The translations under genes and the position numbers were made by a program. Under the pieces are notes generated by a model that made no database searches, was not told the origin of the DNA, and worked only from the letters and a program-made list of their open reading frames with translations. Shown here one piece after another: positions 26,549-58,638 of a stretch of 64,000 nucleotides of DNA (the stretch's first letter is position 1; each line of letters starts with the position of its first letter). Source of the DNA: a virus; IMG/VR virus record IMGVR_UViG_2802428989_000001, positions 1 to 64,000 of that record; one strand, 5' to 3'.

Positions 26549-28291
26549 TTGCCCTGGAAGCCAACGGTCCCCGGTGAGCGTCCCACGCTCGGCTGGGCCG
26601 TACTCGACTGGATAACCGAGTACCTCCCAGTCGTTGACGGCCCCAGCTTGGGTGAGCCGCTGATCTTCACGCCGGAACAGGCGCATTTCGTCGCCCGGCT
26701 CTATGAAGTGGACCCGCTGTTCAAGCCTGGGACCTCGATCGTCGGCCGAGCGATGAATAACGGCCGGCTGATCCGCCGCGCGGTGCTTTCCCGGCCCAAG
26801 GGTTGGGGTAAGTCGCCGCTGGTGGCCGCGCTGTGCATCGTCGAGGCAATCGGCGATGTGGTCATGGACGGCTGGGACGCTGATGGCCAGCCCGTAGGCC
26901 GCCCCTGGGTCGATCTCGGCATCAAGCCGAAGGTCCAGATCATCGCCGTCTCAGAGGATCAGACCGCCAACACCTGGGACCCATGCCTAGACATGGTGCG
27001 CAGCAGCGATCGGCTGCTCGATGACTACGACGTTGACCCGATGGAAACCTTCATCACCGTTCCGCGCGGCCGAATCGAGGCCGTCACGTCGGCCGGAATC
27101 AGTCGCGAAGGTTTCCGGCCCGTCTTCACCGCAATGGATCAGACTGAGAGCTGGACCGAGACCAACGGCGGGCTGCGGCTCGCCGGGACCATCCGCCGGA
27201 ACCTCGGTAAGGTCAACGGCTGCTCTGTCGAGACCCCAAACGCGTTTCTACCTGGTGAGAACACCGTCGCCGAACGTTCGTGGAAGACATACCAGGCGCA
27301 GCTCATTCGTGCCGAGCGCCCACAAGGTGAGGGCCGCGTGCCTGGTGGCCTCTACTACGACCACCGCGAAGCGCCACCGGAAACTGATCCGTCCGACTAC
27401 GACTCGCTGCGCGAGGGGTTGCGGGTGTCGTACGGCGAGTCAGCCGATGACAACGGCGGATGGGTCAACCTTGATCGGATCATCCAGGAATATTGGGATG
27501 ACGACACCGACCCGCAGGACGCGCGTCGGTACTACCTGAATCAGATCACTCACGCCTCGGACCAGTGGATCAGCCAGATCGAGTGGAGTGCGATTCGCGT
27601 TGGCGACGAGAACAAGCCAGACCTAAACCCCATCAAGCCAGGCGACTTCATCGCGGTTGGGTTCGACGGCTCACGCGGCCGTCAGCGCGGAAAAGCTGAC
27701 GCCACAGCGCTGATCGGATGCCGCATTCACGATGGCCGACTGTTCACAATCGGCATCTGGCAGGCCGAGAAACACGAAAAGAACTGGGTGCCACCGGTTC
27801 ACGAGGTGGACGCCGCGGTGCGCAAGACGTTCGCAGATTTCCGGGTTATCGCGTTCAACGCTGACCCAACAGGCTGGACTGAGCAGGTAGTGGCCTGGGA
27901 AAAGGACTTCGGGCGACGGCTCAAGGTCAAGTGCTCCGTCAAGAACCCGATGATGGCCTGGCCGAAGGGCAAGGGCATCAACGTAGTCGAGCATGTTGAG
28001 ATATTTCGTCACGCCGTCGTTACGTCGGGCCAGGACGCCGGCGCGGAGGACTCCGTCATCACGATCAGCCACGGCGGTGACCTCGCGCTGACGCAACACA
28101 TTCTCAACGCGCGAAAACGGGCCGCCAGCCGCGGGTACCTGATCCACAAGGCATATCCAGAGTCTCCCAACAAGATTGACGCCGCATATGCGGCAGTCAT
28201 GGCGTACAAGGGACGGCTCGACTGCTACGCCCAAGGTATCGGCGTACGCGTCAACTCATCTAGCCAGGGAAGGATGGTAGTGCTCGGATGA
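26549..28291 (+). CDS. Terminase large subunit.
   Basis: Walker A-like 'RPKGWGKSPL'. ATPase plus nuclease architecture. 580 aa. Confidence 0.9.
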   Translation: MPWKPTVPGERPTLGWAVLDWITEYLPVVDGPSLGEPLIFTPEQAHFVARLYEVDPLFKPGTSIVGRAMNNGRLIRRAVLSRPKGWGKSPLVAALCIVEAIGDVVMDGWDADGQPVGRPWVDLGIKPKVQIIAVSEDQTANTWDPCLDMVRSSDRLLDDYDVDPMETFITVPRGRIEAVTSAGISREGFRPVFTAMDQTESWTETNGGLRLAGTIRRNLGKVNGCSVETPNAFLPGENTVAERSWKTYQAQLIRAERPQGEGRVPGGLYYDHREAPPETDPSDYDSLREGLRVSYGESADDNGGWVNLDRIIQEYWDDDTDPQDARRYYLNQITHASDQWISQIEWSAIRVGDENKPDLNPIKPGDFIAVGFDGSRGRQRGKADATALIGCRIHDGRLFTIGIWQAEKHEKNWVPPVHEVDAAVRKTFADFRVIAFNADPTGWTEQVVAWEKDFGRRLKVKCSVKNPMMAWPKGKGINVVEHVEIFRHAVVTSGQDAGAEDSVITISHGGDLALTQHILNARKRAASRGYLIHKAYPESPNKIDAAYAAVMAYKGRLDCYAQGIGVRVNSSSQGRMVVLG

Positions 28292-29778
28292 CCACTGCAA
28301 TCGCGCTGCCGTCGCTCCAGCTGTCGAAGGACGAACAAGCCGTACTGATGGATCTGACTACTCAGCTCCAGAAGCACCAGGGCGAAAACCTGATCAAAGA
28401 GCAGTACTACGAGGCTAAGCGCCGAATGGAAGATCTCAAGATCGCCATTCCTCCAACACTTTCCAATCTGATGTGCTGCGTAGGCTGGCCCGCCGTCGCT
28501 GTTGACAGTCTAGTTGAGCGGCTGAACTTTGAGGGCTGGTCATACGAGGGTGACGGCGAGGATCGCGACCCGCTGGGGCTCGATGAGATCTTCCTGGAGA
28601 ACGATCTCGATGTCGAGTCGGATGTTAACCACACAGACGGTCTGATGTACGGAACCTCTTTTGTGGCAGTATCTTCCGGGCTAGACGATGAGCCGGAAGT
28701 GGTCGTGACGGTTGAGTCGCCGCGGAACATGACCGCCATCTACGACCCTCGTACGCGGCGCGCTACCTCGGCGTTCCTCCAGATCGTTGATCGCGAGCTG
28801 CGGTTGGTAGGCGGGCGGCTGATTCTGCCCAACGAAATCATTTCTCTGGAATGCGTTCCCATGGAACTCGGCGCGGCGGGTGTGGGAAACATGCGAGTGG
28901 TCGACCGTAACAAGCACAACCTAGAGCGCGTGCTGGTCGCCCAGATGATCAACCGGCCACGGTCGGGTGCGCGCGGCCGCAATGGACACTCTGAAATCAC
29001 CGAAACACTTATCTCGCATACGCAGTCGGGCATGCGGACGCTAGCCAATATGGAAGTAGCGCGCGAGTACCTGGCATCGCCTCAGCGCGCGGTGCTCGGT
29101 GCGAAGGAATCATTCTTCGTCGGGGAGGACGGCAAGCCGGTCCCGGCGTGGAAATCCTATATCGGCCGCATGATCGCACTGGAGCGTGACGAGTATGGCG
29201 AGATCCCTGACATCAAGGAATTCAAGGGCGCCAGCCTGGAATCGTTCTTCGGTCAGATGCGCACACTGAGCCAGCTCGTATCCTCTGAAATTGCTGTCCC
29301 TGCAAACTATTTGGGATTTGAGACAGACAACCCGCCATCTGCCGACGCGATCCGGTCACTAGAGGGTCGCCACGTCAAACGCGCGGAGCAGCGCCAGAAG
29401 ACTTTTGGCCGCGGCTGGTCGGAGACCGCGCGGCTGTGCGTGATGGTGCGTGAAGGCAAGAAGTTCAACGAACTACCCGACGAGATTCGCAAGGTACGCC
29501 CCCAGTGGCGCGACGCCGCAACGCCGACCTTCGCGGCAACATCCGACGCGGTGACCAAGCTCATCGACAAGGGCGTTTACACACCGACATCGCGCGTCAC
29601 CCGCGACAAGCTGGGAATTAGTCGGGCTGATCAGCGACAGATGGAGATTGACGATAAGAAGACGACGGTCACGAACCTCGTCGCGTCGGTCCGTCAAGGT
29701 GTCGAGAATGCACGCCAGGACAGCCAGGTAGCGTCCCTGGCTGACCGTAGAGCGGCATCTGTTGGCCAGCCTGGTTGA
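28288..29778 (+). CDS. Portal protein.
   Basis: 496 aa, directly after the terminase large subunit with an overlapping start. Confidence 0.85.
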   Translation: MTTAIALPSLQLSKDEQAVLMDLTTQLQKHQGENLIKEQYYEAKRRMEDLKIAIPPTLSNLMCCVGWPAVAVDSLVERLNFEGWSYEGDGEDRDPLGLDEIFLENDLDVESDVNHTDGLMYGTSFVAVSSGLDDEPEVVVTVESPRNMTAIYDPRTRRATSAFLQIVDRELRLVGGRLILPNEIISLECVPMELGAAGVGNMRVVDRNKHNLERVLVAQMINRPRSGARGRNGHSEITETLISHTQSGMRTLANMEVAREYLASPQRAVLGAKESFFVGEDGKPVPAWKSYIGRMIALERDEYGEIPDIKEFKGASLESFFGQMRTLSQLVSSEIAVPANYLGFETDNPPSADAIRSLEGRHVKRAEQRQKTFGRGWSETARLCVMVREGKKFNELPDEIRKVRPQWRDAATPTFAATSDAVTKLIDKGVYTPTSRVTRDKLGISRADQRQMEIDDKKTTVTNLVASVRQGVENARQDSQVASLADRRAASVGQPG

Positions 29779-32700
29779 GCAGGCTCAAGCGCTCCAGAGC
29801 GTCCTGGGCGACCTTTCTACGCTATCCACCAAAGACCTTGTGAGCCTGTACAAGAAGCTCGAAGGCGACGGCGCTACCGGTGCCGACTTGCTGGACGCGT
29901 TCAAGGCCGTGTTCCCCGAGGTTGTACAGCCTTACGTCGAGGCCGCATCCGAAGTGGCGAATCAGTGGTACGGGGAGCTGGCACCCGATGAGCCGTACAC
30001 ACCGAAAGCGGTCGCCGCGATCGACGCGGTGCCACTAGACCGCATGATGAACTCTCTGGAGTGGGCGTTTCGCGCCGCTGGCACCGCTCACCCGCTGACA
30101 AGACTGACCGGTTCGGCGCAGCGCATGGTGTTCGACGGTGCTCGCGCGACGATTCTGCACAACGCTGACGCCGAGAATGTCAAGTACTCGCGCCTGGCGT
30201 CGCCGGGTGCGTGCGAGTTCTGTCGAGTGATGGCCACGCGTGGAGCGGTCTACCGCAGCGCTCACGCGGCGCAGGCGGGCCATGACAACTGCCATTGCGT
30301 GCCGGCTGTTGCCCGCGGAAAGCTCAAATTCCAGCGTCCGGGGTACTACCAGGACTGGGATGCCGAGTACATCGAGACGGTCAAACAGCTCGAAGCTGAG
30401 CAGATCAAGCCGACGCTCAACGCGGTCCTGTCGAAAATGCGGGCCAACGAACTGGCCGCGTCAGACAGCGGGCCAACACTGGTAGCGATGTCTACCAAGA
30501 AGTCACCGGCATCGGCGGACCTCGCAAAGTGGCTTGATGCTGAGAAACAGCACCAGGCGGACGTGGCCGCTTGGCTGGACGCCGAGAAGGTAGTCACGAA
30601 GAAGAAGGCCAAGGCCGCGGCGCAGGCGAAGTACGTCGCCAAGAAGAAGGCCACCGCCGAGTGGCTGGCGGCTGAGCAGCAGTACCAGACAGATGTAACG
30701 ACGTGGCTCGCGGCTGAGAAGGACTTCACCAAGAAAAAGGCCAAGGCCGCAGCGCAGGCGAAGTATGTCGCGAACAAGAAGGCGACTGTCGCCTGGCTTA
30801 AGGCCGAGCAGATCTACATCGAGCAGCAGGCCCCACTTGCGACCGCTGCGGCAGCGGCCAAGGCATCCGCGAAGATCACCGCGATGGCGAACGCGGCCGC
30901 GAACGTCGATCTCAAGAAAGCGGCCAAGGCACTCGCGGCGGCCAAGCATGCGGCCAAAAAGAAGGGCGACACTGCCAAGTACAACGTACTGGCCAAGATG
31001 ACGCCCACGGAATACGTGCAATCCAAGGGTGGCAACGCATCCAAGGCCGCGACGACGGCCACCGCCAAGGTCACCACACCGGAGACCGCGCCGACCGCCG
31101 GAGTCGGCACTGTATCCACCGCGACCAAGCCCAAGGTTGTCGTCGGCGAGCTGACAGATTCGCCGAACGTGCTCGCCAGCACCGGTCAGGTACTCGGCAC
31201 GCACGGCGCCACGGTGTACACCGACTCACAGTCTCAGAAGTGGTTGGTCAAGGGGCCCAAGAACCCGAATGATCAATTCCTGGTCACGCTGGATGCGGCA
31301 TCTGCTGAGCTGCAAGCGAAGTCGGGCTTGACGACACCGGCGATGTACATCATGACGGTAGGTGGTAAGCGTCAGTCCGTTCAGTACATGTTCCCCGGAA
31401 GTAAGAGTGCCTTTCCTTCTGGGGTTGACCTGTCCACAATCAGTGAACCTGATCTGTTGACGATCCAGAAGCATCACGCGCTCGACTGGCTGATGGGTAA
31501 TCACGACAGCCATGCTGGGCAGTTCATCCGTACTGGTAGCGGTGAGATCGTCGGAATCGACAAGGGTCAAGCCTTCAAGTATTTCACCGGCGACAAGCTG
31601 GACTGGAACTATCACCCCAACGTCAAGCACGGCACGCCAGAACCCATTTACAACACGCTGTTTCGGCAGTACGCCGAAGGCAAGCCCGGTCAGTTGCTCA
31701 ATCCCTCGGGCGGCGAGCTAGCGGACTACATCCAAGGTTTACAGGCGATTCCAGACAAAGAGATTCGCAACCTATTTCGGCCCTACGCCGAGGGTGCGGT
31801 CAAACAGGGGAAGCTGTTGGTCGAGGCCAACGGTAGCACTCCAACGAACAATGTTGACGCGTTCCTAGACGCAGTTGTTGCCAGAAAGAACAGTCTCGGA
31901 ACCGATCTGAGCGCCTACTACGTCAAGGCTGTCGAAAAGCGTCTGACGAAGACCAAAGTCAAAGGTGAGGTCATCACCGTGCCGCCAGGGATGAGCATCT
32001 CCCAGGGTGACATCCTGCTGCCGACACCATCAGCGACGACGACGGTTCTGTTGCCGTCTGCTGATGTGCTCAAGAAGGCAGGCAAAGCACTCGCATCCGC
32101 GAAGTATCTAGCGAAAAAGAAGGGCGATACAGCCAAGTTCGCCGAGCTGTCGAAGTTGTCACCCGCTCAATACTTGCAGACCAAGAGCGGTGATGGCCTC
32201 GTGCCCACGGCCGCTACCGAGTCACCCACGGGTTCTGCGACCACTATTCAAATTGCCAAGTGGCAAAAGGAATTTCTCCAGAAGTTCGGCTCCAGCGGGT
32301 TCTTCCAGCCTGTCAAGTCGATGGCGGTCGAGAAGGGTATCAAGCTTTCGGAGGCAATCCCAGAGTTCGATAAAGAGTTCGGAATCAACGCCTTGACCGT
32401 GGATCAGATGGTCAACCTGATGGGCTATTACGGCGCGGCCGTCCAGAGCAAGTGGATCAACAAGTATGGCGATCTGCTCGGCGATGACGTAGCCACAAAG
32501 GTGTGGGACAAGCTCAAGGCGCAGGGCAAGTCCACACTCATAGAACCGCCGAAACCTGTTGCCATCAAGCCGGGTACGAAGTACACACCCGAGCATGAGC
32601 AGCCCGTAGCCGAAATCGCCAAGCTGGGTAAGGCTGTCATCGCCAACCCGAAAGCACCGGTTGGATCTGCGGACAACCCGCACATATTCGACGCGAGCGG

Positions 32701-33301
32701 TAAGACGGCGGAGTGGCAGCAGTTCGGATCGCTGATGTCGCCGCAAGACCAGGCATCCTGGAAGGCCAATCAGTACAGCGCCATCAAGTCCTACACCGGC
32801 AGCGGCTATAGCACCATGAACGCGCACGCGCGCGAAGACAAGGTGCCCTCAGCCAAGACGAAGGCGCTCGATTCAGCGTTTTATGAGCACAAGCCTTTCG
32901 AGGAGCACATCGTGCTCAGCCGCGGTACGCACGCTGTTGAGTTCAACGACGAGAACAGTTTGGGAATGAAGTTCAACTTTGCCGACAGCACCGATGTTGA
33001 CGCGCTCAAGGTGCTGGAGGGTGAGACGTACGTGTCCAAGTCCTTCCTGTCCACGTCGATCACCACGGTGCCGGCATTCAGCAACCCGGTCCGCGTGCTG
33101 TACAAAATGAGACCCGGCCAGCGAGGCATTTTCGTCTCAGGCACGCCAGACGGGGCGAACCAACTGACCTCCGTGGGAACACATGAGCGCGAGGTTATCC
33201 TTCCCCGTAACCAGAAGATGAAGGTGCTCGAAGTACGGAAGTCGACCGGGACGCATTCCAAGGTTGACGTGATCGTGGAGGTGGTGGATCAACCTGTCTA
33301 A
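29762..33301 (+). CDS. MuF-family head morphogenesis protein fused to Lys/Ala-rich repeats, a protein-kinase-like (APH/HipA-like) core and a C-terminal R-S-E ADP-ribosyltransferase domain (1179 aa). Start uncertain: TTG at 29762, or GTG near 29840.
   Basis: Follows the portal gene. 'ACEFCRVMATRG...HDNCHC' MuF-like. Repeats 'KKKAKAAAQAKYVAKKKAT'. 'GNHDSHAGQF...VGIDKGQAF' (HGDxxxxN plus IDxG spacing of 18). ART motifs 'YTGSGYSTMNAHAR', 'FLSTSIT' and 'THEREVILP'. Confidence 0.8.
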   Translation: MASLVEQAQALQSVLGDLSTLSTKDLVSLYKKLEGDGATGADLLDAFKAVFPEVVQPYVEAASEVANQWYGELAPDEPYTPKAVAAIDAVPLDRMMNSLEWAFRAAGTAHPLTRLTGSAQRMVFDGARATILHNADAENVKYSRLASPGACEFCRVMATRGAVYRSAHAAQAGHDNCHCVPAVARGKLKFQRPGYYQDWDAEYIETVKQLEAEQIKPTLNAVLSKMRANELAASDSGPTLVAMSTKKSPASADLAKWLDAEKQHQADVAAWLDAEKVVTKKKAKAAAQAKYVAKKKATAEWLAAEQQYQTDVTTWLAAEKDFTKKKAKAAAQAKYVANKKATVAWLKAEQIYIEQQAPLATAAAAAKASAKITAMANAAANVDLKKAAKALAAAKHAAKKKGDTAKYNVLAKMTPTEYVQSKGGNASKAATTATAKVTTPETAPTAGVGTVSTATKPKVVVGELTDSPNVLASTGQVLGTHGATVYTDSQSQKWLVKGPKNPNDQFLVTLDAASAELQAKSGLTTPAMYIMTVGGKRQSVQYMFPGSKSAFPSGVDLSTISEPDLLTIQKHHALDWLMGNHDSHAGQFIRTGSGEIVGIDKGQAFKYFTGDKLDWNYHPNVKHGTPEPIYNTLFRQYAEGKPGQLLNPSGGELADYIQGLQAIPDKEIRNLFRPYAEGAVKQGKLLVEANGSTPTNNVDAFLDAVVARKNSLGTDLSAYYVKAVEKRLTKTKVKGEVITVPPGMSISQGDILLPTPSATTTVLLPSADVLKKAGKALASAKYLAKKKGDTAKFAELSKLSPAQYLQTKSGDGLVPTAATESPTGSATTIQIAKWQKEFLQKFGSSGFFQPVKSMAVEKGIKLSEAIPEFDKEFGINALTVDQMVNLMGYYGAAVQSKWINKYGDLLGDDVATKVWDKLKAQGKSTLIEPPKPVAIKPGTKYTPEHEQPVAEIAKLGKAVIANPKAPVGSADNPHIFDASGKTAEWQQFGSLMSPQDQASWKANQYSAIKSYTGSGYSTMNAHAREDKVPSAKTKALDSAFYEHKPFEEHIVLSRGTHAVEFNDENSLGMKFNFADSTDVDALKVLEGETYVSKSFLSTSITTVPAFSNPVRVLYKMRPGQRGIFVSGTPDGANQLTSVGTHEREVILPRNQKMKVLEVRKSTGTHSKVDVIVEVVDQPV

Positions 33302-33320
33302 CCCCATCCCCACACGCTGG

Positions 33321-33689
33321 TTGCCCAACGGCGTATACGACATCATCAGCGCCGAGCTAGGCGCGTTCTATGACCGGCCGGATTATCCCGGTGCGCGCGC
33401 TGGCGCTGGGCGCTACGTGGATCTTTTCCAAGACCCAGAACTGGAACACCCAATCGGGCGACTCTGGACCAATGACAAAGACGCCTGCGGCCTGCTGCAT
33501 GTGGCAGACGGCGACGAAGTGCTGTACGCCTACGTTGCGCTATCAATTCGGCGCGAATTTGATGGTGGCGAATCTGCTACGGATACCTTTGACTTCATCC
33601 GCGGCGAGTGGCAAGAAGACGGCACACTCACGACAGTCGATCTTGCAGACATCGAAGACTCTTCGATCGAACTTAATGCCAATATATAG
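33321..33689 (+). CDS. Hypothetical protein directly downstream of the ART toxin domain; candidate immunity or accessory protein.
   Basis: TTG start 20 nt after the MuF-ART stop. Acidic. Followed by a strong terminator. Confidence 0.4.
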   Translation: MPNGVYDIISAELGAFYDRPDYPGARAGAGRYVDLFQDPELEHPIGRLWTNDKDACGLLHVADGDEVLYAYVALSIRREFDGGESATDTFDFIRGEWQEDGTLTTVDLADIEDSSIELNANI

Positions 33690-33706
33690 CTCTTAGAACA
33701 GAGTTC

Positions 33707-33737
33707 GGCCCCTAACAAATAGTTAGGGGCCTTTTTC
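33707..33737 (+). terminator. Rho-independent terminator.
   Basis: GGCCCCTAAC-aaata-GTTAGGGGCC, followed by TTTTT. Confidence 0.85.
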
Positions 33738-33774
33738 ATGCCCGAATTAGCTGTGTAACAGGCAATTCGGGCAT
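33738..33774. other. Second 11-bp stem-loop (ATGCCCGAATT ... AATTCGGGCAT) immediately after the terminator.
   Basis: Perfect 11-bp inverted repeat with a 15-nt loop, upstream of the scaffold gene. Confidence 0.5.
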
Positions 33775-33851
33775 CTCACACTTCCGCTCACACCCGAGCG
33801 GATCGCCCGAAACGGGCGCCCCCTCTATGCGAAACGCAGGAGAGATCTCGC

Positions 33852-34472
33852 ATGTCAGAAGAAGCCGGAACCCCCACGCCCAACTCGATGCCCGGAGCGG
33901 CCGAGGCCGCGGCTGGTCAGCAGCCAGACGCGACGGGGGAGAGCATCGACGAGCTGGAAACTTCGTATGACGAACAGCTCGCGGCGCTAGAGAGCGAACG
34001 CGACCAGTGGCGCGACCAGGCGCGTAAGAACGAGGCTCGCGCAAAGACCAACGCGGCCAAGGCGAAGGAACATGATCAGCACTTCGCCGAGTACAAGGCC
34101 GCGTTCGATCGCGAACAGCAGAAGAAGGAAAGCGAGAAGACACCCGATCAGCGTGTGCTAGATCAGGCGGCTCAGGATCGGGCTCGCGCCGAGAAGGCCG
34201 AGGCTGACAAGGCTGAGGCAGACGCTCGCCTTCTGAGATACCAACTGGCCGACGGTATTCCGCCGTTCGCGCTGCCACTGATCACGGCGACTTCTGAGGA
34301 AGAGATCACTGCCGAGGTCGAGGACCTAAAGGCCAAGCTGGCTGCCTACGTCACTGAGGTGACCAATAGCCAGTCCCGCAGGCCAGCTCCCGATCCGGCG
34401 TTTGGGCGGGGCGGTGCCGCTGGAGCAACTCCAGAAGAGCAATTCGCCGCAGCGCTCAGAGGCGTTATTTAG
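33852..34472 (+). CDS. Scaffolding protein.
   Basis: Acidic, coiled-coil rich ('ERDQWRDQARKNEARAK'). Immediately upstream of the major capsid gene. Confidence 0.7.
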   Translation: MSEEAGTPTPNSMPGAAEAAAGQQPDATGESIDELETSYDEQLAALESERDQWRDQARKNEARAKTNAAKAKEHDQHFAEYKAAFDREQQKKESEKTPDQRVLDQAAQDRARAEKAEADKAEADARLLRYQLADGIPPFALPLITATSEEEITAEVEDLKAKLAAYVTEVTNSQSRRPAPDPAFGRGGAAGATPEEQFAAALRGVI

Positions 34473-57188: not shown

Positions 57189-57628
57189 CAGTGCCCCTCT
57201 CTGGAATCCAATTCGGTTGTAATGTCGGAGATTGGGCGACTTCCCGCCTCGATTCGATCGTGGACGCAGACAGCCCCTACGCACGGGGGACCGTTGAATA
57301 CCCTTTCGATCAGCCCTCCCAGTCGTGAGTCACCGGACGCCATGTTGCCTCCGAACATTGTCCACGTGCGCATCTGGAATGCCGAGAGCGGCACAAAATG
57401 CGGCAGCGCTCCGGGTAGATTTGGCCCGACAAGCACCACGGCGTTATCGCTCGTAGACTCCACAACCCGTGATCCCTCCGGTGGTGGAATCAGCTCACCG
57501 TTGCGGTCGCTCGCGATACCGACCAGAACCAGACGAGAGTGCCGCGCGCTGATGCCATTCAGGGTGCAGTCGGGAAAGTCCGCGGGTCGCAAGACCGTTA
57601 GTTCTAATCCCATCATTGTGTCAGTCAT
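57188..57628 (-). CDS. Hypothetical protein (146 aa) co-transcribed downstream of the ADP-ribosylglycohydrolase gene.
   Basis: ATG shares its A with the glycohydrolase stop. No recognisable motif. Confidence 0.45.
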   Translation of the reverse strand: MTDTMMGLELTVLRPADFPDCTLNGISARHSRLVLVGIASDRNGELIPPPEGSRVVESTSDNAVVLVGPNLPGALPHFVPLSAFQMRTWTMFGGNMASGDSRLGGLIERVFNGPPCVGAVCVHDRIEAGSRPISDITTELDSREGH

Positions 57629-58638
57629 CAGAACTCGTATCCTTCCGCTTCTGAAATCTCTTTCTGGTAGCGCGTTTCCAGCCGATCGAACCACTCGGCA
57701 GGCCATGGGTCGTCATACATCGCGCCGAGGATTGATCCCGCGATCGCCGCGATCGAGTCGCTGTCACCGCTCGTGACCGTCGCGCGACGTAGTGCCGCTA
57801 TCGGGTCATTGGGAAACAGATCGATGCAGAACAGCGCGCACGCCAGCGCATCATGAGCGCGCCAGCCGGGGCCAGCGTGCTCACACGGATCGAGATCCCA
57901 CGGATCAACACCAGAATCACGCAACTGGCGAAGTGCGATATCCGCGGTCAGTAGACGGTCCTGGACGAAGAGCAGACCGCGCGTCATGAACCGACGCACG
58001 CCGACCTCAGCGACGACAGGGTGACCGTCGATCCAACGGGCAACATCCGTAAGTAGAGACGAATCATGATGTAGCCCAGTGCTTGCCAGATAGACCGCCT
58101 CTTCGAGCAGCCGCCCTGGGTAGATGCTTCGCGCATTGCGGATGATCGCTGCGGTCAAGAGCGATGCGGCGATGCCCGTCGCGCGCCCGTGGGTGGATGC
58201 TGCTTGCCACGCGGCGACCCCTTGCCAGCTGCGATCTTTGGTTACGAAAGCTGCTGGACTGACGCGCATTACCGTGCCGCATCCATCCGAGTTCAAAATA
58301 GTGGCCTTGGGCCAGGGGAAGTCGTTCTTCAACGCCCCGATAGCGCGCATGCACGTGTTGCCCGGTGCGCGGTTGTTGTCTGGGTCATCGAACCACTTGA
58401 TCCACTGATCGATGATCTTGACGCCAACCTCATCATCGGTCAATTCTTTTGTGTCGTGGAGACCTCGCGCGAGCGCGAGCGTCATCTGAGTGTCGTCGCT
58501 GATGATCAGCTTCTCAGGCAGCTCTGGGCCCATTAGCCCGTTTTCGGTGAGCTGAGCGTACGACCTGAACTCATTGCGGTAGCCCCACGCATCGCCATAG
58601 GCGACACCACGGAGCACGTTGGACCATTTACTAGGCAT
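57628..58638 (-). CDS. ADP-ribosylglycohydrolase (DraG/ARH family).
   Basis: N-terminal 'GVAYGDAWG' and C-terminal 'SGDSDSIAAIAGSILGAMYD' metal-binding signatures of the ARH fold. Confidence 0.85.
   Translation of the reverse strand: MPSKWSNVLRGVAYGDAWGYRNEFRSYAQLTENGLMGPELPEKLIISDDTQMTLALARGLHDTKELTDDEVGVKIIDQWIKWFDDPDNNRAPGNTCMRAIGALKNDFPWPKATILNSDGCGTVMRVSPAAFVTKDRSWQGVAAWQAASTHGRATGIAASLLTAAIIRNARSIYPGRLLEEAVYLASTGLHHDSSLLTDVARWIDGHPVVAEVGVRRFMTRGLLFVQDRLLTADIALRQLRDSGVDPWDLDPCEHAGPGWRAHDALACALFCIDLFPNDPIAALRRATVTSGDSDSIAAIAGSILGAMYDDPWPAEWFDRLETRYQKEISEAEGYEF

Follow-up and report, generated by a model that had tools for sequence, protein, structure and literature searches.

The window, i.e., the whole stretch of 64,000 nt of DNA that was analysed, is Mycobacterium phage prophiFSAT01-1 (BK061308.1), a prophage from cluster MabR that resides in Mycobacteroides abscessus strain 280, and our subject is the giant protein encoded by its gene 53 (gp53) within the head module. 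We consider it fairly probable that gp53 is a polyvalent effector of the virion, with a MuF-type head protein as its base. In it, a head-anchoring type of N-terminal domain is followed by Lys/Ala-rich linkers, a kinase-like domain and a C-terminal ADP-ribosyltransferase (ART) domain, and the key residues of both predicted active sites are nearly invariant among relatives. Proteins of the gp53 family probably travel inside the capsid and enter the host together with the DNA.

Gene context and domain architecture

The coding sequence (CDS) of gp53 starts with TTG, spans 29762-33301 on the plus strand and encodes 1179 amino acids (aa), as given by the open reading frame (ORF) list and its translation. 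It is 100% identical to positions 29979-33518 (gene 53) of BK061308.1, where the GenBank product (DAZ89942.1) is named 'minor capsid and ADP-ribosyltransferase domain fusion protein', and orthologs are found in four other MabR prophages at a nucleotide identity of 77-86%. An initial annotation, made from the sequence alone, had reported an ORF of this length after the portal gene, which is borne out by a 17-nt overlap between the end of the portal gene (gp52) and the start of gp53. Genes are ordered as small terminase, large terminase, portal (gp52), gp53, gp54, scaffold and major capsid, so that gp53 lies directly after the portal in a portal-terminase head module, an order shared with the homologous locus L006, with L013 and with SPP1, whose layout likewise has gp7 after the portal. 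At L006, the gene in the portal position matches SPP1_portal (PF05133).

The same annotation had read the protein as a fusion of four parts. These four are present, and gp53 is built of at least five, the additional one being aa 831-990. All nine strings that it had quoted occur in the translation, namely ACEFCRVMATRG at aa 150, HDNCHC at aa 174, KKKAKAAAQAKYVAKKKAT at aa 280, KWLVKG at aa 493, GNHDSHAGQF at aa 579, VGIDKGQAF at aa 597 (leaving 18 residues between D582 and D600), YSTMNAHAR at aa 1016, FLSTSIT at aa 1095 and THEREVILP at aa 1140. The features of the locus are as follows.

29762-33301, plus strand: gp53 CDS (ORF list, translation, identity to BK061308.1)
29762-30451, plus strand: VG15/MuF-like head-anchoring domain, aa 1-230 (PF25310, structure model, Foldseek)
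30482-31138, plus strand: Lys/Ala-rich repeat and linker region, aa 241-459 (composition, DNA repeats)
31169-31966, plus strand: HipA/PI3-PI4-kinase-like domain, aa 470-735 (K497 at 31250-31252; loops GNHDSHAGQF...GIDKGQ at 31496-31570)
32069-32190, plus strand: linker-repeat copy 2, aa 770-810 (73% DNA identity to copy 1)
32252-32731, plus strand: conserved segment, aa 831-990 (BLAST to relatives, alignment)
32732-33298, plus strand: C-terminal ADP-ribosyltransferase domain, aa 991-1179 (PF03496, phrog_3895, alignment to C2 toxin component I)
28288-29778, plus strand: portal gene gp52, immediately upstream of gp53 (counterpart of the PF05133 gene of L006)
33321-33689, plus strand: gp54, 122 aa, starting 19 nt past gp53 (phrog_9543)
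57628-58638, minus strand: gp84, ADP-ribosylglycohydrolase, in the lysogeny-expressed arm (PF03747, 4.6e-49)

The kinase-like domain

Protein-kinase-like motifs in the middle of gp53 had initially been likened to those of APH, ChoK and HipA-type kinases. The kinase fold and the residues K497, D582 and D600 stand, while the affiliation with APH and ChoK does not, and the domain belongs instead with the HipA and PI3/PI4 kinases. An AlphaFold2 model of the region, built on the family alignment, returned the kinase fold confidently (predicted local distance difference test, pLDDT, 87.6; predicted template modelling score, pTM, 0.87), as the initial annotation had expected of structure prediction. 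This protein-kinase-like fold is closest to PI4K type II, CtkA and HipA/HipT, neighbours with which the gp53 kinase shares a sequence identity of just 12-15%. As a single sequence, aa 460-735 matched nothing in Pfam, PHROGs or the PDB, and phmmer, run with the domain against the PDB, returned nothing above background (nsp9 and triosephosphate isomerase, E > 0.4). Ten kinase relatives, with stand-alone, GNAT-fused and ART-fused forms among them, came from a word-indexed search. Pfam HipA_C was matched by 8 of 11 kinase family members (best 5.4e-8) and PI3_PI4_kinase by 5 of 11; the Pfam kinase matches in Onyinye gp16, Phrappuccino gp195 and locus L015 each lie below the gathering scores. When the family profile was searched against the PDB, a sub-threshold loop match to DNA-PKcs was obtained, in which the family segment DWLxxNHDxHxxNF...GIDKGQAF aligns with the DRHxxN...IDFG loops.

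Conservation was counted over the 191 copies of the domain that the family's 155 best representatives contain. The catalytic K497 is kept in 188 copies, D582 in all 191, H584 in 171, D600 and K601 in 190 each, and Q603 in 182, and position 587, the place of the metal-binding Asn, is Asn in 119 copies and Gln in 67. Q541, in the N-lobe's final strand, is conserved in 153 of the 191. The set of ATP-binding Lys, catalytic Asp, metal-binding position and DFG-type Asp is thus found in gp53. Conservation of the K/D/D pattern is that of an active enzyme family rather than a decayed relic, and the active site of the gp53 kinase is predicted, from its sequence, to be intact.

We also considered membership in a HipBA or HipBST module and rejected it: there is no match to HipA_N or to a helix-turn-helix domain and no HipB or HipS neighbour, the genes on either side being the portal gene and gp54. 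At most, gp53 has a HipA-type kinase function, and it is not a member of a toxin-antitoxin system.

The ADP-ribosyltransferase domain and the segment before it

Pfam ADPrib_exo_Tox (PF03496) matches gp53 at aa 1001-1170 with 57.8 bits (cut-off 23.4; 1e-15), and phrog_3895 matches the same domain at 9e-16. Aligning the domain by phmmer pairs VLSRG with IAYRR, FLSTSIT with FSSTSLK and HEREVIL with DEQEILL of C2 toxin component I (2j3v), the first of these pairs lying on the strand that bears the catalytic Arg. Because of this register, the R-S-E triad is assigned to R1054 (32921-32923), S1097-T-S1099 (33050-33058) and E1142-R-E1144 (33185-33193). The initially proposed triad was therefore right in its STS and ExE elements, which sit in register with a known ART active site, and in its family (ADPrib_exo_Tox). 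Its arginine was misplaced: R1024 of YSTMNAHAR lies upstream of the triad in a helix motif, YxxxNxxxR, and is conserved, though it is not the canonical catalytic Arg. Among 91 ART copies, R1054, S1097 and E1142 are each kept in 90 and E1144 in 91. Such near-invariance across 191 kinase and 91 ART homologous domain copies indicates that neither set of motifs is a chance occurrence, and we regard the gp53 C-terminus as an R-S-E ADP-ribosyltransferase and a putative enzyme. The ExE form of the ART motif is typical of arginine-specific enzymes (C2, iota, VIP2).

Upstream of this domain, aa 831-930 form a conserved small helical segment. The motifs IKPGTxYTP and GSxxNPHxF, in the 60 residues before the Pfam ART domain, precede every ART copy in the relatives, and BLAST matches to this stretch (in family members P0031, P0089, P0061, P0065, P0062 and P0109, plus three sites in P0026) each lie just before an ART. 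The 60-residue pre-ART stretch is accordingly part of the ART module. The ART and pre-ART segment share about 58-60% identity between MabR relatives, against 80-83% for the N-terminus or the kinase. No Pfam or PDB match was found for aa 831-990, and a PDB profile search with aa 810-992 gave only a weak, non-significant calmodulin EF-hand-like match (E 0.049). The stretch that gave it lies within aa 831-930 (32252-32551) and reads IPEFDKEFGINALTVDQMVNLMG.

The N-terminal domain

Residues 7-203 match Pfam VG15 (PF25310) with 130.7 bits (cut-off 26; E 1e-37), the family of mycobacteriophage L5 gp15, which matches the same model. Invariant in the VG15 alignment are C151-x-x-C154 (30212-30223) and H174-x-x-C177-x-C179 (30281-30298). 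An AlphaFold2 model of aa 1-233 (pLDDT 88.2) was compared with BFVD using Foldseek. The best matches are proteins of Fionnbharth, VasuNzinga, Volt and Floof and a 'MuF-like domain protein' of a Rothia phage, all annotated as MuF-like minor capsid proteins, and further ones include portal-MuF fusions and the ART/MuF fusion of Percival (E 5e-11 to 1e-5, TMq 0.6-0.74, the MuF names being annotators' labels).

The initial annotation had described a MuF/SPP1-gp7-like N-terminus. This is upheld by fold, gene position and module interchange, on which we base the argument because gp53 does not match Pfam Phage_Mu_F and its comparison with a gp7 profile, detailed below, was not significant. Module interchange is the strongest functional argument for a MuF-type role: a gp53-type kinase, with or without the ART, stands behind a Pfam Phage_Mu_F domain at loci L030 and L015 (1e-15), and the IMG/VR contigs hold 12 MuF-kinase-ART proteins alongside 8 VG15-kinase-ART proteins.

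Linkers and DNA repeats

Between the N-terminal domain and the kinase, Ala makes up 27% and Lys 17% of residues 241-470, so that the Lys/Ala-rich composition first noticed there is real. The histone H1/Hlp homology suggested for this region was rejected, since no family matches (none in Pfam at E <= 0.1 for aa 241-458) and the likeness is compositional. phrog_17862 matches gp53 twice, and the match to phrog_193 reaches aa 379.

At the DNA level, we found a tandem 132-nt duplication (30523-30786, 77% identity) and a 122-nt direct repeat (30911-31032 and 32069-32190, 73% identity). The latter encodes the two LKKA.KALA.AK..AKKKGDTAK units (aa 384-424 and aa 770-810). Both units thus exist as first described; they do not both lie within the Lys/Ala-rich region, and instead flank the kinase module. 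The copies of the 122-nt repeat are possible recombination points for the gain or loss of modules, or possible processing sites.

Distribution of the kinase family

An exhaustive profile search over 1.84 billion representatives recovered 1817 clusters of the kinase family at E <= 1e-3 and 710 at E <= 1e-30. Large size is common among the best 155 members (119 have at least 1000 aa), and 38 of them carry two or more kinase copies. An ART homologous to that of gp53 is present in 84 of the 155; the kinase is N-terminal to it in 84/84, and the ART occupies the extreme C-terminus in 82/84. A VG15 N-terminus in the gp53 order was seen in seven of the best 155. Scans of genomes and viromes turned up the family in Actinomycetota, Desulfobacterota, PVC-group bacteria, Hydrogenedentota and Pseudomonadota; among IMG/VR contigs, at least 255 encode it.

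In a curated phage collection, 12 of 50,697 records contain the family, and none of them names a kinase. These are five MabR prophages, Phrappuccino (two), Settecandela, Onyinye (two), Leopard and Aikoy. The Phrappuccino/Settecandela form is a 2030-aa 'hypothetical protein' adjoining a virion structural protein, and the Onyinye/Leopard/Aikoy form is a 1340-aa 'ADP-ribosyltransferase' with the kinase near its N-terminus.

Partner genes gp54 and gp84

The small protein gp54, annotated as hypothetical, carries the motif YDxPDYPGxxxGxGxWxDL...HPIGRLW and matches phrog_9543, which is labelled as of unknown function. It is homologous to Onyinye gp17 (28% identity, E 1e-13) and to 128-aa genes directly after the giant gene in the metagenomic phages L006 and L007, so that four divergent systems keep such a gene behind the giant one. 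In the IMG/VR sample, 11 of the 28 giants with an ART are followed by a gp54 homolog, as against 0 of 52 kinase giants lacking the ART (Fisher p=2e-6), and it stands behind both VG15- and MuF-anchored proteins. No homolog was found at E <= 1e-3 in the Micromonospora/Krasilnikovia loci, which have a more divergent ART and a different ORF of about 113 aa with merely suggestive similarity to gp54. From these sequence associations, gp54 is a candidate cognate immunity or chaperone protein for the ART.

The second partner, gp84, matches Pfam ADP-ribosylglycohydrolase (ARH; PF03747) at 4.6e-49. Homologs occur in 27 of 50,697 phage records, the only mycobacteriophages among them being eight records of MabR prophages, Phrappuccino and Settecandela, each with the kinase protein. 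The ortholog in McProf (gp86) is listed among the genes expressed in lysogeny (PMC9434293). By association only, gp84 might counteract the ART or reverse its effect; its link to the kinase/ART proteins is imperfect and suggestive.

The G+C content over the kinase-to-ART cargo and gp54 (about 31100-33900) is 0.545-0.595, against a value of 0.60-0.65 for the N-terminal domain and for the genes of portal, scaffold and capsid, and the left edge of this drop coincides with linker-repeat copy 1. This suggests that the gp53 cargo and gp54 were acquired as one cassette.

Proposed mechanism and competing explanations

Through its MuF domain, SPP1 gp7 enters the procapsid at the portal (cited in PMC5512222, PMC9503650 and PMC5576092), and a packaging logic for MuF/ART proteins has been published (PMC9503650), as has the observation that MuF toxins are followed by a small immunity ORF (PMC5576092). 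On our preferred reading of gp53 as a polyvalent virion effector, the VG15/MuF-like domain (aa 1-230), standing in the place of SPP1 gp7, would attach gp53 to the procapsid or the portal and so let a few copies be packaged. The Lys/Ala-rich linkers, possibly associated with DNA, would string out the cargo, of which the first enzyme would be the HipA/PI3-PI4-kinase-like domain (predicted active site K497, D582, H584, Q587 in the Asn position, and D600) and the second the C-terminal R-S-E ART (R1054, S1097-T-S, E1142-x-E1144). At infection, gp53 would leave the capsid with the DNA and could phosphorylate and ADP-ribosylate host proteins, for takeover or counter-defence. In the producing cell, gp54 would most likely neutralise or chaperone the ART, and gp84 may reverse ADP-ribosylation in lysogens. 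What the sequences show are the identities of the domains, their conserved catalytic residues, the place of the gene, the kinase-before-ART order and the co-occurrence of gp54 with the ART and of the ARH with the kinase-bearing proteins; packaging, ejection, enzyme activities, substrates and partner roles are inferred.

Several observations weigh against this proposal. Among the Pfam families that the initial annotation had pointed to, gp53 matches ADPrib_exo_Tox and neither HipA_C (PF07804) nor Phage_Mu_F (PF04233), the latter even at E <= 10 with full gp53 or aa 1-240; SPP1 gp7 scores 114 bits against PF04233 in the same library. It does not match PI3_PI4_kinase (PF00454) either, and it has Gln at 587 in place of the metal-binding Asn. 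Alignment of a 12-sequence VG15 profile with hhalign to SPP1 gp7 alone or to an 18-sequence gp7 profile gave probabilities of 0.6% and 3.5%, respectively, from shallow alignments (Neff 2.8), in which the sole local match set HDNCHC on DCNCRC of gp7. The presence of gp53 in virions is predicted by analogy, and McProf, the best-studied relative, is reported to express only lysogenic genes (PMC8191103). As for the partners, no known domain is recognised in gp54, which is tied to the ART by a statistical association (11 of 28 loci). In Onyinye-type phages, the kinase-ART protein comes with no ARH homolog at E <= 1e-10, and Phrappuccino has the ARH and the kinase with no ART detected in its gp195 by Pfam, the ART hidden Markov model (HMM) or BLAST.

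An alternative that we regard as possible, if unlikely, is that gp53 or its C-terminal cargo is a MuF polymorphic toxin directed against competitors or non-lysogens, released at lysis or delivered by particles, with gp54 as immunity protein and gp84 as a second layer of protection for the lysogen. The locus fits the published definition (PMC5576092) in its MuF-type N-terminus, toxin-type C-terminus, temperate or prophage setting and directly downstream ORF of <150 aa; the ARH homolog is expressed in lysogeny, and the divergence of the ART and pre-ART segment between MabR relatives is as expected in an arms race. However, Onyinye carries the same cassette, and the delivery route would be the same as that of the virion effector we favour, so that the difference lies mainly in purpose. 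If instead the kinase-like domain were a non-catalytic pseudokinase, acting as a scaffold, nucleotide sensor or regulator of the ART, the ART would be the sole effector. The Gln at 587, the missing Pfam kinase matches of gp53 and the strict kinase-then-ART order, which could reflect regulation rather than two independent activities, speak for this possibility, which we nevertheless judge quite improbable: K497, D582 and D600 are kept in 188-191 of the 191 copies, the N/Q alternation is family-wide and not a local decay, and many family members have the kinase without an ART, or two kinase copies. A kinase fold does not tell the substrate class (protein, lipid or small molecule), which also tempers our own proposal of host-protein targets. 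The kinase might thus act on a lipid or another small molecule, e.g., phosphatidylinositol of the mycobacterial envelope, and help DNA entry or remodel the membrane, and to this we assign a very small likelihood.

It is exceedingly improbable that gp53 is a capsid maturation protease fusion, a reading invited by names. Three PHROG families that match gp53 (phrog_1752, phrog_193 and phrog_13257) are labelled 'head maturation protease', and some fold matches of its N-terminus are called 'capsid maturation protease'; in RefSeq, the VG15 family, including L5 gp15 (L010 5862-6746), carries the former label as well. Yet Pfam and NCBIfam scans found no peptidase family matching any part of gp53, its invariant residues are a Cys/His cluster and not a Ser/His/Asp triad, its N-terminal fold is that of proteins named MuF-like minor capsid protein, and the phage encodes its scaffold apart from its capsid protein (297 aa), in an SPP1-like layout that does not require a protease. 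Because of the absent peptidase match, the Cys/His cluster and the MuF-like fold, we take the protease label of the VG15 family as positional, and it looks possibly wrong.

The virion-effector reading can also be extended. The kinase and ART might form an obligate, ordered two-enzyme injected cassette that hits one host pathway in two steps, e.g., with phosphorylation priming a target or locking in its arginine ADP-ribosylation; gp54 would be the ART immunity protein and gp84 an eraser that protects lysogens from the enzyme of superinfecting relatives, which together would make a capsid-delivered toxin-antidote system. We hold this extension to be distinctly unlikely; if true, the cassette with gp54 and gp84 would shape superinfection and lysogeny in M. 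abscessus.

Comparison with known systems

Among the closest described systems is the EFV toxin of an Enterococcus faecalis V583 prophage (PMC5576092), which shares a portal-adjacent temperate head gene, a MuF-type N-terminus, a C-terminal ART and a downstream ORF of <150 aa as putative immunity gene. In contrast, gp53 has the VG15 branch and not Phage_Mu_F, about 750 extra residues including the kinase, and an actinobacterial host. Like the MuF polymorphic toxins of Jamet et al. 2017, gp53 is encoded in a prophage, ends in an ART and is followed at 19 nt by a small ORF (gp54, 122 aa) with a putative immunity role; the word kinase is absent from that paper (PMC5576092). Fusions of Alt/VIP2 ARTs to MuF have been published (PMC9503650). 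ART/MuF-like fusions of the Microbacterium phages Percival, Goodman and Johann (PMC7302621) share the MuF-like N-terminal fold (through the Foldseek match of Percival), a VIP2/exoenzyme-type ART at the C-terminal end and a predicted location in the virion, and the Percival protein, at 678 aa, is about 500 residues shorter than gp53. Phage T4 Alt is likewise a capsid-packaged ART that is injected with the DNA (per PMC5512222 and PMC9503650), and phrog_802 ('Alt-like') matches gp53 weakly (0.008); T4 Alt differs in its packaging signal, in having a single enzymatic domain and in coming from a myovirus of Proteobacteria.

Polyvalent proteins, as defined by Iyer, Burroughs, Anand, de Souza and Aravind in 2017 (PMC5512222), combine several effector domains in one giant protein encoded among virion genes, and gp53 agrees with this in joining a kinase and an ART to an anchor of the MuF type, in a gene that stands between those for portal and scaffold. 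That work treats MuF and ART as hubs of the network, lists kinase, GNAT and nucleotidyltransferase (NTase) domains as cargo that modifies proteins, and predicts that the proteins are delivered along with the DNA. The authors describe a serine/threonine/tyrosine kinase clade without a C-lobe, found mainly in Verrucomicrobia-Chlamydia and Bacteroidetes prophages, and mention neither HipA nor PI3K. Compared by description only, this clade might be the same family as the gp53 kinase, as hinted by its conserved Gln (cf. Q541) and its members in the PVC group.

Unlike HipA/HipT/CtkA and PI4K type II, gp53 lacks a HipA N-terminal domain and comes with neither a HipB nor a HipS antitoxin, and its kinase sits in a structural phage protein. 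The 'Gratiaviridae' gut phages (Benler et al. 2021, PMC8008677), again compared by description, encode a HipA-like kinase protein between the portal and major capsid genes. They differ in being Bacteroidetes phages with no reported MuF/ART fusion, and their authors argue for a late or immunity role and not for injection. Onyinye gp16 (1340 aa) shares with gp53 the kinase (39% identity), a C-terminal ART and a gp54 homolog (gp17) directly downstream, and differs in having no VG15/MuF domain and in lying between the small and large terminase genes.

An initial claim that a MuF protein with both a kinase-like and an ART domain was new for an actinophage was therefore too strong, given that GenBank already names a minor capsid/ART fusion and that MuF-ART fusions of actinophages, polyvalent proteins with MuF, ART and kinase domains, and HipA kinases in head modules have all been published. 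Our literature search found no specific report of a HipA-like kinase in MuF or virion proteins; nor did we find an account of this kinase family on MuF/VG15 anchors, of its strict pairing with the ART in a fixed order, of the gp54 family or of the co-occurrence with a glycohydrolase.

Implications

The kinase marks an annotation gap, in that the GenBank record of gp53 does not annotate it and neither Pfam nor PHROGs has a family for it, yet it comprises about 1800 clusters; an NCBIfam scan of gp53 likewise returned nothing useful. A curated model of the kinase would re-annotate many giant phage proteins now called 'hypothetical' or 'ADP-ribosyltransferase'. The kinase-then-ART rule, together with the partner gene and the glycohydrolase, makes the biology of capsid-delivered effectors testable in actinophages, and Onyinye, which grows on M. 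smegmatis, offers a tractable model. M. abscessus is a drug-resistant pathogen against which phages are used therapeutically, and a link between MabR prophages and whiB7-dependent resistance to antibiotics has been reported. What MabR virions inject, and what their lysogens make to reverse it, bears on phage therapy and on prophage-mediated fitness.

Other arrangements of the kinase

One of the best 155 relatives is the 6354-aa protein P0026 of Mycolicibacterium sp. XJ870 (WP_448465317.1), annotated as 'ADP-ribosyltransferase', with at least two kinase copies and three gp53-type ART copies, all three of the latter with the 60-residue pre-ART motif before them. Phrappuccino gp195 (L004 7358-13450) has the kinase at its N-terminus and lies four genes from an ADP-ribosylglycohydrolase; its C-terminal end, HENEHEVTILP, resembles HEREVILP of gp53 (BLAST E 0.87). 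A 2292-aa protein from an actinobacterial metagenome-assembled genome (L011 4609-11487) represents a different polyvalent arrangement, in which a Scabin-like ART, a NUDIX domain and a glutamine-deamidase toxin domain accompany the gp53-type kinase. Finally, many of loci L016-L046, from only remotely related bacteria (Desulfobacterota, Pseudomonadota, Hydrogenedentota and others), encode a nearly identical kinase protein of about 1535-1557 aa, with 32-33% identity to gp53 over 744 nt, and the sole locus scanned among them (L030) has a Pfam Phage_Mu_F N-terminus, which suggests one widely spread prophage or mobile-element lineage.

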